A stretch of 64,000 nucleotides of DNA from contig JBJLFR010000010.1 of assembly GCA_045565285.1 (NCBI GenBank), forward strand, positions 3,344-67,343. The letters are read 5' to 3'. Both the position numbers and the translations under genes were made by a program. This DNA is from Paracoccaceae bacterium. GTDB lineage: Bacteria; Pseudomonadota; Alphaproteobacteria; Rhodobacterales; Rhodobacteraceae. Below, in pieces: positions 3,266 through 64,000 of this stretch. The notes beneath the pieces were generated by a model. The model made no database searches, was not told the origin of the DNA, and saw nothing but the letters and a program-made list of their open reading frames with translations. Numbering within the stretch: position 1 is the stretch's first letter; each line of letters starts with the position of its first letter.

Positions 3266-3985
3266 TTATCTTAAGTTTTTTTCTTTTACTTTAAATAATT
3301 TAGTACCATCTTGGGAAGAAATTATTGAATTTACTCTTAAATCAGTTCCTTTCCAAATCGCTAATGCTAGAAGAAAGCCTTTGGTCATTTTTGTCCAATG
3401 TTTTTCATTTGATTTATGTATTACAATATCATCAACATTTGCAACCTTTTCTCCATTATGTTCAGACCAAAATAATGCGGAACCAGCAAGTGGTACATAT
3501 GCCTCTTCAGCTAAATGCCAATGCATTTGATAATTAAGATTTGCTCCCCAATAACCTATCATTATTCTGAGGTTATTCATATTATACGGGCCATTTGGTC
3601 CTATTAAATCAAACCATCCATACCTATTTATGAAGTCAGCACCAACTTCATTTTCAGAATAGGTAATATTCCATTTCAACTCATGATTTGCTTCAACTAT
3701 GCTGTCTAAAATATTCTTAGTATTTGAAAATTTGGATGTATTAATTTTTGTAATAAGTTTTTGCACAGGCTGTATTTGTGGTAGAATTGGAATGTATTTT
3801 AAATCTTTGGAAATTTTACCACAAAATCCTATTATATCGCCTCTTGAGTTACAGAAATCTATAACATTATCTTTCAAATTTATTAGATTTTCTGATATTT
3901 CCAAAAAAAACCTTTTATTTAAAAAAAAGTACAAATACAAAAGCTGTATAAATAAGTCTAATAGTTTCCACCTTTTAAAACACAA
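3266..3985 (-). CDS. cupin-fold protein, DMSP-lyase-like (DddL/DddQ/DddK-type metal motif)
   Basis: 239-aa ORF. The C-terminal cupin has 'NYQMHWHLAEEAYVPLAGSALFW ... IHKSNEKHW', i.e. H-x-H-x3-E-x-Y plus a distal His. The preceding 'FDLIGPNGPY...IGYWG' resembles DddL as I recall it. The true start is uncertain (T-rich N-terminus). Confidence 0.5.
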   Translation of the reverse strand: MCFKRWKLLDLFIQLLYLYFFLNKRFFLEISENLINLKDNVIDFCNSRGDIIGFCGKISKDLKYIPILPQIQPVQKLITKINTSKFSNTKNILDSIVEANHELKWNITYSENEVGADFINRYGWFDLIGPNGPYNMNNLRIMIGYWGANLNYQMHWHLAEEAYVPLAGSALFWSEHNGEKVANVDDIVIHKSNEKHWTKMTKGFLLALAIWKGTDLRVNSIISSQDGTKLFKVKEKNLR

Positions 3986-4239
3986 TCATCAAAAAAATTA
4001 AAAGCTTTGTTAGAACCAATTAAAAAAAACCAGGCTACATCGTCATTTTCATCCATCTGATAAAATTTTCTGCCTGCTCTCATCTCATTTTCAATTTCTT
4101 GTGTGGCTTCATCAGAATAATTAAAAATATTGCTTATTAACCAACCATTTTCATAAACTGGTTGGTCATCTTTACATGGTTGATTATTATCAATTCTAAA
4201 TTTAAAAAAGTCTAATTTTTTTTTTAGTATAGTCATCAT
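3958..4239 (-). CDS. hypothetical protein
   Basis: 93-aa ORF on the same strand, overlapping the downstream cupin gene by 28 nt. No recognisable motif. Confidence 0.3.
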   Translation of the reverse strand: MMTILKKKLDFFKFRIDNNQPCKDDQPVYENGWLISNIFNYSDEATQEIENEMRAGRKFYQMDENDDVAWFFLIGSNKAFNFFDDCVLKGGNY

Positions 4240-4264
4240 AGTATGTCTCTAATGTATATTCATC

Positions 4265-4473
4265 TTAAGATCTGTAAATTTGTAATATAATTTCATCAGT
4301 GTAAACTGCAGCAATACATCCTTTAGTTCCATCATCATAGCTTATTAAGTTAACTTTCCAGTGATCTTTTTCATAAATTGTAATTACTTCAGCACTTACA
4401 GAAGACATTGAAATGAAAAAAAAGAAAAAATAAAAGTCATAAAATAATTAAATTTCAAAATAATTTTTTTCAT
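4265..4473 (-). pseudogene. small secreted protein, frame broken in a homopolymer tract (or sequencing error)
   Basis: The ATG at 4473 opens a Sec-type signal peptide (MKKIILKFNYFMTFIFSFF...) that stops after 25 codons. A second frame continues ...FFISMSSVSA/EVITIYEKDHWKVNLISYDDGTKGCIAAVYTDEIILQIYRS to the TAA at 4265. The junction lies in coding-strand T6/T8 runs (plus-strand A runs 4416-4430). Total length is 209 nt = 3n-1. Confidence 0.4.
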
Positions 4474-7621: not shown

Positions 7622-8599
7622 ATGAAGAACTTTAAGATATTTATATATTCATTTATATTTATAAATCTTTCTTTATTCGGAATCGTTCATGCCGAAAAAT
7701 GGGATATGCCAATGGCTTATTCTGCAACAAATTTTCATTCTGAGTACGGTGTAGTATTTGCTGATAAAGTTAAAGAATATACAAATGGAGAACTTGAAAT
7801 TACTGTTCATCCAGGAGGCTCTTTATTTAAAGGTGGAGAAATAAAAAGAGCGGTACAAACAGGCCAAGCACCAATCGGTGAAAGATTTATGTCTGCTCAT
7901 GCAAACGAAGCTCCACTGTTGGGTTGGGATAACCTTCCTTTTCTAGCAACAACTTATGATGATAATAATAAACTATGGTCGGTTGCTAAAGATAAAGTTA
8001 ATAAACAGCTTTCTGAATTAAATCTTGTAGCACTTTATACTTGTCCTTGGCCTGGGCAAGGATTTTATTTTAAGAAAGAAGTCAAATCTAGTTCAGATAC
8101 TCAGGGAGTAAAATTTCGTTCTTATAATGCAGCAACTGCTACATTTGCAAAAGAATTAGGTATGTTACCAGTTCAGGTTGAAGCAGCAGAACTGAGTCAA
8201 GCATTAGCAACTGGTGTTGCTGAAGCATTTATATCATCTGGTTCTACAGGCTATGACCGAAAAGTTTGGGAACACTTAACTCACTATTATAAAGTTAATG
8301 CATGGTTGCCAAGAAATTATGTAATTATTAATAAAGGGATATATGAAGGCCTTTCTGATAATATAAGAAATGCGTTACATAAAGCTGCAGATGAAACTGG
8401 AGCTGCATGTTCTGCAAAATCTGCAGAATTAGCAAATTGGTATTTTGAACAATTAGAATCTAATGGTATGACAGTTACAGATGCTGGCCCTGATTTTTTA
8501 AAAGAATTAAAAGCCATTGGTGCTAAAATGCAATCTGAGTGGTTAAATACTGTTGGTTCTGAAGGTCAAGCCATAGTTGATGCTTATAATAAGATGTAA
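7622..8599 (+). CDS. dctP: TRAP transporter substrate-binding protein (DctP family), system 1
   Basis: 325-aa ORF with a signal peptide and a DctP-like core ('ITVHPGGSLFKGGEIKRAVQTGQAPIGERFMS'). Strong AGGAGG RBS. Followed by dctQ and dctM. Confidence 0.85.
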   Translation: MKNFKIFIYSFIFINLSLFGIVHAEKWDMPMAYSATNFHSEYGVVFADKVKEYTNGELEITVHPGGSLFKGGEIKRAVQTGQAPIGERFMSAHANEAPLLGWDNLPFLATTYDDNNKLWSVAKDKVNKQLSELNLVALYTCPWPGQGFYFKKEVKSSSDTQGVKFRSYNAATATFAKELGMLPVQVEAAELSQALATGVAEAFISSGSTGYDRKVWEHLTHYYKVNAWLPRNYVIINKGIYEGLSDNIRNALHKAADETGAACSAKSAELANWYFEQLESNGMTVTDAGPDFLKELKAIGAKMQSEWLNTVGSEGQAIVDAYNKM

Positions 8600-8643: not shown

Positions 8644-9357
8644 ATGAATGATTGGTCAAATTTTATTGGTTTGCCACTTTGGTTTTGGCTTTTTATTTTG
8701 CCATCTTTAGTTTGTTTATTTTGTTTATTTTTTCAAAATAAGCTAGAATATTTCTTTCTACCAATTTGGAAAATATTAGATTTTATTTATCACTTATCTG
8801 GTATTATTGCGGCAATAAGCATGTGTTTGATATTGCTTATTATAATTGCACAAATGGTCACAAGGTGGACAGGAATTATTTTTGAAGGTTCCACAGAATT
8901 TGCAGGATATGCAATGGCATCAACTTCTTTTTTTGCTTTAGCATATGCTTTAGGTAAAGGTTCTCATATAAGAGTATCAATTTTTTTAAATTTAAATTCC
9001 TTTACAAAAAAATGGCTGGATGTTTTTGCTTTATTTATTGCTTCTATAATTGCTACTTTTTTTGCTAGATATGCAATAAAAACAAATTTTATGTCTGAAA
9101 TTTTAAATGATAGAACTCAAGGACAAGATCAAATTCCTGAGGCAATTATTTACAGTTTAAAAATGTTTATCACGTTTCCTTCAGATTGGATTATACTTTG
9201 GTCGAATTATGAAGGGAAATGGGTATTTACACCAGTTTGGATTCCACAATTACCTATGTCTATTGGAACTATTTTACTTGCAATTTGTTTATGGGATCAT
9301 CTTTTAAGACTTCTTGTTACAAAAAAATCAGCAATAAAATCAAACATTGTTAAATGA
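8644..9357 (+). CDS. dctQ: TRAP transporter small permease (DctQ family), system 1
   Basis: 237-aa polytopic membrane ORF located between dctP and dctM. Its stop overlaps the dctM start (ATGA). Confidence 0.75.
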   Translation: MNDWSNFIGLPLWFWLFILPSLVCLFCLFFQNKLEYFFLPIWKILDFIYHLSGIIAAISMCLILLIIIAQMVTRWTGIIFEGSTEFAGYAMASTSFFALAYALGKGSHIRVSIFLNLNSFTKKWLDVFALFIASIIATFFARYAIKTNFMSEILNDRTQGQDQIPEAIIYSLKMFITFPSDWIILWSNYEGKWVFTPVWIPQLPMSIGTILLAICLWDHLLRLLVTKKSAIKSNIVK

Positions 9358-10665
9358 CTGAGATTCTAGCAACTATTATATTTCTTTTTTCCTTATTTTT
9401 CTTATTAGGAAGTTCAGTTTGGGTTGGTCTATCTTTAATTGGAGTAGCCTGGATAGGTATAGAATTATTTACATCTCGCCCAGCAGGAGATGCTATGATT
9501 ACAACTATTTGGACAGGAGCATCAAGTTGGACTCTTACAGCATTACCACTCTTTATTTGGATGAGGAGAAATATTATATAGAACTAGATTATCTGAGGAT
9601 ATGTTTAAAGGACTTTCACCATGGATGAGTCGTCTACCTGGGGGTCTTCTTCACACTAATATAGCTGGTTGTACATTATTTGCTGCAGTATCAGGTTCTT
9701 CTGCAGCAACCTTAACCACAGTAGGAAAAATGTCTATTCCAGAACTTAGAAAAAGAGGTTACCCAGAATATATGATAATTGGAACACTTGCTGGAGCAGC
9801 TACTCTTGGATTGATGATACCACCTTCCTTAACTTTAATTGTTTATGGTGTATCTATTAATGAATCCATTACAAAATTATTCATGGCAGGTGTAATACCT
9901 GGACTTATTTTATCATTATTGTTCATGCTTTATATAATCTTTTGGTATTATTATTTTCCAAAAGAAAGACCTCCTGCAGAAAAATCAATTGGTATAAAAC
10001 AAATGATTGCTGAAAGTAAATTTCTTATTCCGATATTGGCTTTAGTTATAATAGTTATTGGTTCTATGTACTTTGGTTGGGCGACAGCTACCGAAGCTGC
10101 TGCAGTTGGTGTTGTAGGAGCTCTTACATTAGCATTTTCTCAAGGTTCATTAACTTGGGAAGCTTTTTCAAGTAGTCTTATGGGGGCGACTAGAACATCA
10201 GCTATGATAGCATTAATTTTAATGGGTGCAGCTTTTTTATCTTTATCAATGGGGTTTACGGGATTACCAAGAGCTTTAGCAAACTATATTGATACTCTAA
10301 ATTTATCACCTATTGTCTTAATAGCCTCTCTAACTATTTTCTATATAATTTTAGGAATGTTTCTTGATGGTATTTCATCAGTTGTATTAACTATGGCAAT
10401 TGTTGAGCCAATGATAAGGCAAGCTGGAATTGATGTTATTTGGTTTGGTATTTTTGTTGTTGTTGTAGTGGAAATGGCACAAGTAACTCCACCAATTGGT
10501 TTTAATTTATTTGTATTACAAGGGATGACTAAACATGAAATTTCTTACATTGCAAAAACAGCAATTCCAATGGTTGCACTAATGGTTTTAATGGTCATTA
10601 TCTTAGTAATTTGGCCAGAACTAGCTACTTGGCTTCCAGAAACAATAAGACAACGTGGAAGTTAA
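9354..10665 (+). pseudogene. dctM: TRAP transporter large permease (DctM family), system 1, interrupted by a +1 frameshift (or sequencing error)
   Basis: 70 codons from the ATG at 9354 end in '...TALPLFIWM' and then run into a stop. Skipping A9564 reads 'GEILYRTRLSEDMFKGLSPWMSRLPGGLL...', continuous with ORF 9601..10665. The joined product is ~436 aa, the normal DctM size. Confidence 0.8.
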
Positions 10666-41066: not shown

Positions 41067-42077
41067 ATGAAATATTTTACATCAAATTTATTAATTAAAT
41101 TTATAATGCTAATTACTTTAAGTTTTCTAAGTTTTGTTACATCGGTGTTCGCGGATGGACATGTAACATTAAGAATGTCCACGCCTGCTTCTGCCACTGA
41201 CCAGAGAAGTATTGCTTTGGAAAAAATATTTGCTCCAGCTGTGTCTGAGTTTGCAAAATATGAACCCCATTATAATGCATCGTTAATTAAACAAAATTCA
41301 GAGCTTGAAGCAATTGCTTCAGGTGATCTTGAAATGTCTATTACTTCTGCCCAAGAATTAACTCAATTCTTTCCTGAGTTTTCAATACTTGCTACAGGTT
41401 ATGTTCATCAAGATGCAGCGCATCAGGTAAGGGTTTTTAATGATTCACTGATGGACCCTTTTAAGGCTAAGGTTGAAAAAGAACTTGGCGTTAAACTTCT
41501 AAGTATTATGTATTTAGGAAGAAGACATGTAAACCTTCGTCAATGTAAGGATGAAGTTAATGTTCAAACACCTTCAGATTTGGCAGGAATTAATCTTAGA
41601 ATGCCAGGTACGGATGCATGGCAATTTTTAGGAAAAGCTTTAGGAGCTAACCCTACTCCAATGGCTTTTACAGAAGTTTATACTGCTCTACAAACAAAAT
41701 CTGTGGATGGTCAAGATAATCCTCTTCCAACAGTTGTAGATGCAAAATTTTATGAAGTGACTTGTCAAATTGCACTTACATCTCATTTAGTTGATCTTAA
41801 TTATGTTGCATTTTCTAAAGCAGTTTGGGATAAATTAGATGCTAATCAGCAAGCAACTGTTGAGAAAGCAGCCATCGATGCCGCTGAAAGTGCTCGTCAA
41901 ATACAACTTCAAAAAGAGAATGATTTGGTTTCATTTTTGAAAGAGCAAGGCTTAGAAATTTATGAACCGAATCTTGCTGCATTTAGAAGCCACGTTCAAA
42001 AAATGTATCTTGAAACTGATGCATCTGATCCGTGGCCAGATGGAGTATTAGATAAGATTAATTCATTAGGTAATTAA
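41067..42077 (+). CDS. dctP: TRAP transporter substrate-binding protein (DctP family), system 2
   Basis: 336 aa with a signal peptide and AAGGAG RBS. DctP-like 'NLRMPGTDAWQFLGKALGANPTPMAFTEVYTALQTKSVDGQDNPL'. Confidence 0.85.
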   Translation: MKYFTSNLLIKFIMLITLSFLSFVTSVFADGHVTLRMSTPASATDQRSIALEKIFAPAVSEFAKYEPHYNASLIKQNSELEAIASGDLEMSITSAQELTQFFPEFSILATGYVHQDAAHQVRVFNDSLMDPFKAKVEKELGVKLLSIMYLGRRHVNLRQCKDEVNVQTPSDLAGINLRMPGTDAWQFLGKALGANPTPMAFTEVYTALQTKSVDGQDNPLPTVVDAKFYEVTCQIALTSHLVDLNYVAFSKAVWDKLDANQQATVEKAAIDAAESARQIQLQKENDLVSFLKEQGLEIYEPNLAAFRSHVQKMYLETDASDPWPDGVLDKINSLGN

Positions 42078-42100: not shown

Positions 42101-42692
42101 ATGAGAAATATTCAAAATAGAATTATTCAAGCTTTTGAACTTGTGGCGGCCATAATGATGGCCGCTATGTTTGCAACGTTTATTCTCCAAGTAACAATTA
42201 GATATTCTGCACGTAAAGAATGGATAAGAGATATTTTTTCCTATTATGGATCCGACTCTATATGGTTGGACACTTGATTTCTGTCTTTTAATGTGGATTT
42301 GGATGGTTTTTTGGGGAAATGGACTAATTGTTCGACAACGTGATCACGTAATTTTTGATATGTTATATACTAGTGTATCTCCAATTTTACGTAAATGGCT
42401 GGCAATTTTAAGTGCTTTAATAATATCATTTACATTACTAATTGTTATTGAGCCCACTTGGAGTAAATTTTTTATCCTTAGATTAAAAAAAACTGCTACG
42501 CTTTCTAATGTTTTTGGTGATTGGATAAGGGTTAGAGATATTTATTTAATATTTTTTATTTTTTGTATAGCAGTTTCATTCAGATATCTTTATAGGGCTT
42601 TTTTTATATTTAAAAACGGCGCAGAATTTGACTTAATTTATTCAAATAATGATGGAATTGATTCATCAAATGAGAATAAAAATGTCTTATGA
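42101..42692 (+). pseudogene. dctQ: TRAP small permease (DctQ family), system 2, interrupted by a 1-nt insertion in a T6 run (or sequencing error)
   Basis: The ATG at 42101 gives 'MRNIQNRIIQAFELVAAIMMAAMFATFILQVTIRYSARKEWIRDIF' and then stops at codon 58. With one T fewer in the T6 run at 42234-42239 it reads on into '...PIMDPTLYGWTLDFCLLMWIW...' (ORF 42246..42692). The span is 592 nt = 3n+1. Confidence 0.75.
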
Positions 42693-43978
42693 GTTTTTTA
42701 TATGTTTAATAATTTTGTTTAGCTTATCTGCAATAGGAACCCCTATAGCATATGCAATTTTTGTAAGTTCTTGCGCTTATTTATGGGTTGGTGGTCAGGG
42801 AATAGGTTTAGCAGGAAAAATAATATTAGATGGATTATATAGTAGTTTTATATTACTCGCAGTTCCTTTATTTATAGTGGCAGCTAATATAATGAATGCT
42901 TGGTACCATTAGTGATCGTCTTTTAAGGTTTTGCGTAGCCGTAGTTGGTAGATTTAAAGGTGGATTAGGTCATGTAAATGTAGTTGCTAGCATAATTTTT
43001 TCTGGTATGTCTGGTTCAGCAGTAGCAGATGCAGCTGGTATTGGAAAAATCATAATAAATATGATGGTGAAATCAGGGCATTATACAAGAGGATATGCTG
43101 CTGCTATTACAGCAGCATCCGCAACAATTGGTCCAATAATACCTCCATCTATACCAATGGTTTTGTATGCTTTAGTATCTAATAGTTCAATAGGCTACCT
43201 TTTTCTTGGGGGAATAATTCCAGGAATAATGATGGGGGCAGTTCTAATGGCTATGAATAGTTTTATAGCTATTAGAAGGGGTTATGAGCCTGAAGAATCT
43301 GTTCCTATAATGAAACTTCCAGGTATTACTTTTAATGCATTTCCTGCATTATTAATGCCTATTATTTTATTATATTGTATATATGGAGGAGTGACAACTC
43401 CTACTGAGGCAGCAGCAGTTGCTGCCTTTTACGCTCTTCTATTAGCTTCTATATTTTATAGAGCACTATCATTTTCAAATTTTTATAAAATTTTAGTTGA
43501 ATCAGCTCGTTCATCTTCTGCAGTGGGGTTAGTAATTGGAGGAGCTTTGATTTTAAATTATATTGTAGCATCAGAAAACATACCTCATATTATTGCCGGC
43601 TATCTTGTTGGATTAGATGTTTCTCCACTATTTTTCCTTATTTGTGTAAATATTTTAATATTATTATTAGGTTGTATACTTGACGCAACTACTCTTATAT
43701 TAGTAATTATCCCACTTTTTTTACCTTCATGTAGGGAGTTAGGAATAGATTTTGTTCACTTTGGAGTAGTTTCTGTAGTTAATTGTATGATTGGTTTAAT
43801 TACTCCACCATACGGAGTTTTATTATTTGTAATAAATGCTGTATCCCGAATTCCATTAGGAGAAATTATTAAAGAAGTAATACCTTTTTTATTAGTATTA
43901 ATAGTTGCCCTTTTTGTTATGGTTTCTTTCCCTGATTTAGTATTGTGGTTACCAAGGAAATTTGGATATGAAGGATAA
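42682..43978 (+). pseudogene. dctM: TRAP large permease (DctM family), system 2, interrupted by a +1 frameshift (or sequencing error)
   Basis: The N-terminal frame ends '...AVPLFIVAANIMNA' followed by WYH-stop. Skipping T42901 reads 'GTISDRLLRFCVAVVGRFKGGLGHVNVVASIIFSGMSGSAVADAAG...', the conserved DctM core (ORF 42896..43978). The joined product is ~431 aa. The likely start is the ATG at 42682, overlapping dctQ. Confidence 0.8.
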
Positions 43979-44035
43979 TTGCAGTAAAAAAAAAAAAATT
44001 AAAATAATAAAATAAAAAAAAAAAATGATACAGAT

Positions 44036-45897: not shown

Positions 45898-46789
45898 TTA
45901 TGAATTTTTGACTTTATCTAGGGAATTATACTGAGAGTAAATTTTATAATATTTATTAAAACCGACAGTTTCTCTTATTTCTTTAAAGTTTAATAAAAAC
46001 TCATCGGTTGATTTATTTTCTTTAAGTTGTTGCAATACATTTTTCATTGCATACATCGATGCGGCTAATAGTGTTAATGGATGAAAAGCAATATTGTACC
46101 CTATTGCTTTCATTTCATCTAATGAAAGAATTGGAGTAAGCCCTCCTTCTAACATATTAATAATTTTTTTTTCCAGGAACTTCCTTACATATGACTTTCA
46201 TTTCATCCAAATTTTTTGGAGCCTCTATAAATATAACATCTGCTCCTAAATTAAAATACTTTTGCCCTCTATCTATAGCTTCATTTAGACCATGAGTATG
46301 ATTAGCGTCAGTACGAGCAATAATAACAATATCACCTATTTCTTCCCTTACTTCGGAAACAGCTTTTATTCTATCATAGGATTCTTCTCTACTTATTATC
46401 TCTTTTCCTGGAGTATGACCACAGCGTTTTGGTAAAACCTGATCTTCAATAATTATCCCTGCACAACCTAATTTTATAAATTCAGTAGCGGTTCTTCTAA
46501 CATTCATTATATTACCGTATCCATTATCGGCATCTACCACTAAGGGTATAGAAATAGACTCTTTTACATTTTTAGCTTGATCATAAACCTCAGAATAAGA
46601 AATAAGTCCTAAATCAGGCATGCATAATCTTGTAGCAGCTACTGAGAACCCAGATAAAACTGTTAACTCAAATCCTGAATTTTCAACTATTTTAGCAGAA
46701 AGCGCATCAAAACAACATGGAGCTGAAATAAATTTATTATCTTTTAAAAGCTTTCTAAGTTTTTTGGCTGAATTATTTATATTTTTCAT
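45898..46789 (-). pseudogene. isocitrate-lyase/PEP-mutase-family enzyme (PrpB / carboxyvinyl-carboxyphosphonate phosphorylmutase-like), broken in an A9 run (or sequencing error)
   Basis: The 210-aa part carries 'CFDALSAKIVENSGFE', 'DADNGYGN', 'IEDQVLPKRCGH' and 'ARTDA' and ends '...EVPGKKNY*'. With one A fewer in the coding-strand A9 run (plus-strand T9, 46164-46172) it reads 'GKKIINMLEGGLTPILSLDEMKAIGYNIAF...' into ORF 45898..46155. The span is 892 nt = 3n+1, giving ~296 aa when joined. Confidence 0.8.
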
Positions 46790-63899: not shown

Positions 63900-64000
63900 A
63901 TGCTTGTTTTAGTCGGACTTATGGGAGCAGGAAAATCTTCTATAGGAAAAAAAACTATCCAATTTTTTAAATGTAGGATTTATAGACTCTGATCAAGAAA
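63900..64000 (+). pseudogene. aroK: shikimate kinase, 5' part, frame broken in an A8 run (or sequencing error); runs off the window
   Basis: The ATG at 63900 gives 'MLVLVGLMGAGKSSIGKK' (Walker A), after which the frame reaches a stop at codon 31. With one A fewer in the A8 run at 63947-63954 it reads 'LSNFLNVGFIDSDQE', the conserved AroK continuation. Confidence 0.75.

Follow-up and report, generated by a model that had tools for sequence, protein, structure and literature searches.

Two TRAP systems with interrupted large-permease genes

The window, by which we mean the whole stretch of 64,000 nucleotides that was analysed, lies on a 79.8-kb contig (C10) of an assembly of a marine alphaproteobacterium with relatives labelled Rhodobacteraceae (G000; 2.23 Mb in 36 contigs, ~31% GC). 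It carries two TRAP systems, in each of which the gene for the large permease is interrupted. The genes and lesions concerned are as follows.

41067 to 42077, plus strand: dctP-2, periplasmic solute-binding subunit, intact (Pfam PF03480, E = 5e-54)
42101 to 42692, plus strand: dctQ-2, TRAP small permease, in two open reading frames of 58 and 148 aa, with one extra T
42682 to 43978, plus strand: dctM-2, TRAP large permease, 1297 nt, equal to 431 codons, a stop and one extra base
42900 to 42901, plus strand: extra T that shifts the frame of dctM-2, giving TT against one base in all relatives
9354 to 10665, plus strand: dctM-1, paralogous TRAP large permease, 1312 nt, equal to 436 codons, a stop and one extra base
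9564, plus strand: extra A in dctM-1, ATG[A]GGA, outside any homopolymer, absent from all five same-genus orthologues

Around the break in dctM-2 the window reads AAT ATA ATG AAT GCT TGG TAC CAT TAG (positions 42886 to 42912), exactly as given in the initial annotation, which had called the gene broken by a +1 shift at T42901; omission of one T at 42900/42901 leaves the frame open to the terminal stop. As deposited, the gene is split between reading frames at 42649 to 42912 (87 aa) and 42896 to 43978 (360 aa), and its start is the ATG at 42682 (MSYEFF...), the same as in intact relatives. In comparison with the Pfam DctM profile (PF06808), the 87-aa piece covers positions 1-67, with 21 bits for the fragment alone, and the 360-aa piece covers positions 68-412 with 320 bits, placing the break at profile positions 67/68. 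With the pieces joined, dctM-2 matches the full profile above the curated cut-off, and it stands in an operon with genes identified by Pfam as DctP (PF03480) and DctQ (PF04290). In dctQ-2 the extra T lies in the run at 42234-42239, which is T6 instead of T5.

The second interruption, which the initial annotation had likewise reported as a nearby +1 break in the paralogous gene, is also borne out. Omission of A9564 opens the frame of dctM-1 to its stop. The C-terminal part of the product begins at profile position 61 (61-412, 256 bits), so that the break falls at about positions 60/61, and the N-terminal reading frame is 97-99% identical to intact orthologues. This gene also gives a full-length DctM match when its pieces are joined; in both genes the extra base is the only departure from the family. 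Two reading frames, presumably dctP and dctQ, precede dctM-1 (7622-8599 and 8644-9357), and like known TRAP systems both dctM genes occur in the order dctP-dctQ-dctM, with same-species orthologues of 431 and 436 aa. Four other matches to the DctM family in the genome have no internal stop.

The two breaks are thus strikingly alike in position and kind: they lie 6-7 profile columns apart, each is a one-nucleotide insertion just 5' of a GGN codon, and each leaves its gene one base over a multiple of three. A nucleotide motif common to the two sites was not found (GCT[T]GGT versus ATG[A]GGA), and their homopolymer context amounts to TT at 42901 and no run at 9564.

The extra bases are private to one assembly

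Comparison with same-genus genomes, most of them marine single-cell genomes, showed that all eight dctM-2 orthologues lack the extra T and read AATGC-NGGNAC in the DNA alignment. Their products are 90-96% identical to that of dctM-2; seven of these orthologues are open over their full length, and the remaining one ends at a contig edge. All five dctM-1 orthologues are intact (frames of 436-442 aa) and read TGGATG-GGNGAAAT.

Closer comparison was possible with metagenomic DNA of the species itself, on four contigs from as many independent samples that are 96.4-98.2% identical in nucleotide sequence; among them are L143, from a Tara Oceans sample, and L144, from a marine metagenome in NCBI. Three of them span the dctM-2 site, with 98.2% (L143), 97.1% (L144) and 96.4% (L145) identity to the window over 1.9-2.8 kb, and all three read AATGCT-GGTACC there. 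In both L144 and L145 the base at 42239 is absent and the run in dctQ-2 is T5, the latter contig encoding an intact DctQ of 196 aa. The fourth contig, L146, is 96.9% identical to the window over 3.9 kb, and A9564 is the sole indel in that alignment. Searching 5.8 billion proteins recovered 431-aa proteins 99-100% identical to the C-terminal fragment of dctM-2 and a 436-aa protein 99% identical to the dctM-1 fragment; the stretch across the dctM-2 break quoted in the initial annotation is matched exactly by an intact 431-aa metagenomic protein, from which the gene differs by three codons overall. The extra bases in both dctM genes are therefore private to this assembly.

A survey for recurrence, the refuting check that the initial annotation had named for itself, extended this result. 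The interruption was seen in none of the 13 same-genus orthologues, none of the four same-species contigs and none of 240 close relatives, the latter being the 120 best matches to each gene; the shorter entries among those 120 derive from short contigs and read through the site, for example as MNAGTISDR for dctM-2.

The initial annotation had offered an unrecognised recoding event or a split-protein arrangement among its explanations, and the survey bears directly on both, since each predicts a conserved interruption and none was seen; we reject both on these grounds. Programmed +1 ribosomal frameshifting, or some other recoding, would yield full-length DctM from both genes. Both sites do require a +1 shift, and the zero frame of dctM-1 reads AUG AGG AGA, runs of AGG being hungry-codon shift sites in E. 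coli. However, the relatives carry the plain frame, the two sites have no slippery or hungry-codon motif in common (GCU-U-GGU as against AUG-A-GGA), neither has a stop or stimulator at the point of the shift, and the other DctM-family genes of the genome manage without an internal stop. The likeness to +1 frameshifting of the prfB type or the Ty1/Ty3 type goes no further than the formal need for +1; unlike those sites, the dctM breaks have no conservation, common motif or stimulatory element, and their orthologues are plainly open. Similar +1 lesions are also found throughout the genome in many contexts of no relation to one another, as described below, and we regard recoding as highly improbable. 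Nor does either dctM site lie in an A or T run of about nine or more, at which transcriptional slippage might occur. A9 and T9 sites elsewhere in the assembly would formally fit slippage, and relatives lack those insertions too.

A permease made in two separately translated pieces, an N-terminal one of ~75-87 aa and a C-terminal one of ~354-360 aa, could draw on the downstream-frame ATG at 42896 in dctM-2, placed 6 nt before the extra T and still inside the tail of the upstream reading frame. In dctM-1, however, the first downstream ATG (9601) would cost the protein 12 conserved residues, the best 120 relatives of either gene include no split form, and the split is peculiar to this assembly. 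The probability that we attach to such an arrangement is close to nil.

The same comparison shows no decay beyond the one base. Synonymous and non-synonymous codon differences from the same-species contigs number 12:4, 42:3 and 25:2 (1:2 for the near-identical L143). Each dctM gene carries one lesion and no further stops, and the same-species contigs are intact, a pattern that does not correspond to a genuine pseudogene.

Immediately downstream of dctM-2, the spacer that separates it from the PfkB gene (43979-44035) contains A13 and A12 tracts whose lengths are unlike those of the same-species contigs: L143 has A10, and L144 has shorter, interrupted A runs. This may be either real variation in tract length or a further run-length error.

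Single-base insertions recur throughout the assembly

The frequency of such lesions in the assembly at large was estimated with reading frames from two sister genomes, 834 kb of G002 and a portion of G001, which were compared by tblastn with the whole of the assembly. The count includes G002 reading frames of at least 100 aa that have an orthologue at 60% identity or more. An initial census of blastn gaps against the sister genomes gave hundreds of compensating gap pairs at ~80-85% identity and was too noisy to use; it was replaced by detection of frame switches with tblastn together with local MAFFT alignment.

Among the 622 G002 reading frames, 27 were flagged as split across frames, and removal of tandem-paralogue and antisense artefacts left ~23 genes with ~28 sites. 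The reverse comparison flagged six, of which ~3 are real, among roughly 620-640 orthologues. The assembly therefore has a clear excess of frameshifts (~23 versus ~3), and it extends to essential single-copy genes (see below). By frame arithmetic and local alignment, ~24 of the ~28 sites are single-base insertions. Most of these lengthen a homopolymer (A8 to A9, T7 to T8, G6 to G7, A3 to A4), and non-homopolymer insertions are also present, as in rho (GGTCCC[T]GATGAT) and petB (TTGCT[A]CC).

The sites are strongly clustered, and the contig that carries the window is among the worst, with six of 33 compared genes split, as against 8/107 on C4, 4/43 on C13, 1/114 on C16 and 0/55 on C33. All eight split genes of C4 fall within its first 20 kb, a region with well over a dozen single-base indels. 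Two further assembly-specific insertions lie in the window itself.

46164 to 46175, minus strand: one-nucleotide insertion in a T9/A9 run, splitting a gene with a 298-aa orthologue
63947 to 63954, minus strand: one-nucleotide insertion in an A8/T8 run, splitting a gene with a 111-113-aa orthologue

The first of these leaves reading frames at 46157 to 46789 and 45898 to 46155, in frames -2 and -3 by tblastn with the G001 and G002 orthologues.

These counts alter the standing of two features that had seemed peculiar to dctM. The shared need for +1, pointed out in the initial annotation, is no peculiarity of these genes: both breaks need +1 because the great majority of frameshifts in the assembly are single-base insertions. 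The position of each break directly before a glycine codon is correct for the two dctM sites and does not hold as a trend, since the insertions show no preference for positions before GG and are mostly extensions of A or T runs.

Elsewhere in the window, the minus strand at 3266-4408 has three short reading frames in succession (47, 93 and 239 aa), which are in different frames and either adjoin or overlap. On C4, the stretch at ~84000-104000 has ~95-100% local identity to contig C1 of G002, against ~80-85% elsewhere; a conserved operon such as rRNA might account for this, as might a segment shared recently.

Essential genes carry the same lesion

Among the genes split in the assembly are rpsA, rho, gyrA, uvrA, petA and petB, and Pfam confirms the identity of ribosomal protein S1, Rho, GyrA, UvrA and cytochrome b. 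A second copy of rpsA, rho, gyrA, petA or petB was not found in the assembly. The six S1 domains of ribosomal protein S1 are spread over two pieces (C16:~46075). In Rho the break lies within the RNA-binding domain, at profile position 24 (C32:46688; CCC[T]GAT). In GyrA it falls where the topoisomerase domain meets the C-terminal beta-propeller (C13:~32930); internal stops at this junction and within petB proved to be additional frame changes. The gene uvrA is split at C13:~28500 and truB at C4:~19200. The most extreme case is petB, which has at least five frame changes within 1.3 kb (C4:7983-9296), each of the intervening segments resembling the orthologue, and the neighbouring petA, for the Rieske protein, is also frame-shifted. 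Serial +1 insertions in one gene with no other damage are not what true pseudogene decay would yield; they are the mark of consensus errors where an assembly is poorly supported.

As true null mutations, these breaks could not all be borne by a free-living aerobic cell. Since wild DNA of the species lacks the extra bases of dctM and the assembly has many insertions of this kind, some of them in essential genes, the dctM breaks are almost certainly sequencing errors as well.

A ParC-like paralogue of GyrA (C23:188935-190645) gives matches in frames -2 and -3, and may carry another frameshift.

An assembly insertion error is the most probable cause of the dctM breaks

Taken as a whole, the evidence makes it very probable that each dctM break is an erroneous one-base insertion in the draft assembly, absent from the DNA of the organism. 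The privacy of the extra bases, the genome-wide excess of breaks and the involvement of essential genes are matters of observation; that they stem from a sequencing or consensus error rather than from mutation is what we infer from the pattern of sequence differences. The assembly carries dozens of +1 insertions, concentrated in certain stretches, and according to this explanation two of them chanced on the paralogous pair of dctM genes at a distance of 6-7 alignment columns. Judged from their sequences, the dctPQM-1 and dctPQM-2 systems of the real genome most likely function and are unbroken.

Indels that fragment genes have been documented as artefacts in assemblies prone to error (PMC12007338; PMC9262707). 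The present case resembles such draft-assembly errors in that it comprises many one-nucleotide indels, mostly in homopolymers and clustered, and in that the lesions strike essential genes, are absent in relatives and leave fragments that are otherwise perfectly conserved. It differs from typical homopolymer errors in the dominance of insertions and in that a minority of sites, including those of dctM-1 and rho, lie outside homopolymers. The two dctM sites, in no run and in a run of two bases, in fact contrast with most of the other sites, which occupy longer homopolymers.

That contrast is one of three points that speak for the principal alternative, in which true mutations, private to the sequenced cell or strain, gave rise to the extra bases, and both TRAP permeases, together with dctQ-2, are very recent pseudogenes that could have arisen under relaxed selection or in a mutator background. 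The extra bases do stand in the deposited sequence, and of the four genes for membrane subunits that the window's two TRAP systems comprise, three are affected. Against this, like lesions in single-copy rpsA, rho and gyrA, and at least five in petB, would be incompatible with viability. The decay of bacterial pseudogenes favours deletions, whereas the lesions here are overwhelmingly insertions. The dctM genes have acquired no further stops and differ from their same-species counterparts mostly at synonymous positions, and the DNA of the same species in the wild is intact at these sites. We consider private mutation improbable, although less so than any other alternative. Selection for switching off the TRAP permeases, which the initial annotation had also proposed, was discarded on similar grounds: the population is intact, the lesions are private, and comparable lesions affect essential genes.

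A variant of the alternative retains the extra bases as real and supposes that many +1 insertions, those in rho, gyrA, rpsA, petB and both dctM genes among them, are tolerated or corrected in the lineage. If true, it would call for ribosomal or transcriptional +1 frame correction at an unusually high level, and we give it very little weight. Of the explanations put forward in the initial annotation, error is therefore the one that stands, without the shared, position-specific mode that had been envisaged for it; inactivation and recoding or splitting do not. Its observations are confirmed and its interpretation is largely not upheld, so that overall it is partly supported.

The dctM breaks most probably represent no novel biological feature, and their value lies in the caution that they urge about the assembly. 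Some 4% of its compared genes, and nearly one in five on the contig that carries the window, are broken by single-base insertions, and its annotations will list split housekeeping genes as pseudogenes or fragments. Claims of pseudogenes, decaying clusters, recoding or split genes that are derived from this assembly need to be checked against same-species contigs or reads. Annotation should treat both TRAP systems as intact, along with the sugar-acid-like catabolic cluster that surrounds dctPQM-2.

The proximity of the two breaks

The closeness of the two dctM breaks is chance. In trials that scattered the eight frameshift sites of the 79.8-kb contig with uniform probability, 1.4% struck both dctM genes, and the probability of striking them within eight codons of each other was about 6e-4 (~0.06%). 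This value is small and nominally counts against the error explanation, but it describes one pattern chosen post hoc from very many, on an error-dense contig. Comparison of the local DNA of the paralogues and of the insertion contexts revealed no mechanistic link between the breaks. Cross-mapping of reads between the paralogues was considered and is not an obvious cause, the DNA around the breaks being insufficiently alike.

Another locus of the DctM family, on the minus strand at C14:17747-20566, has two partial matches to the profile (positions 47-160 and 237-413) within a single open frame of 1054 aa, which may encode a fused or otherwise unusual TRAP permease.
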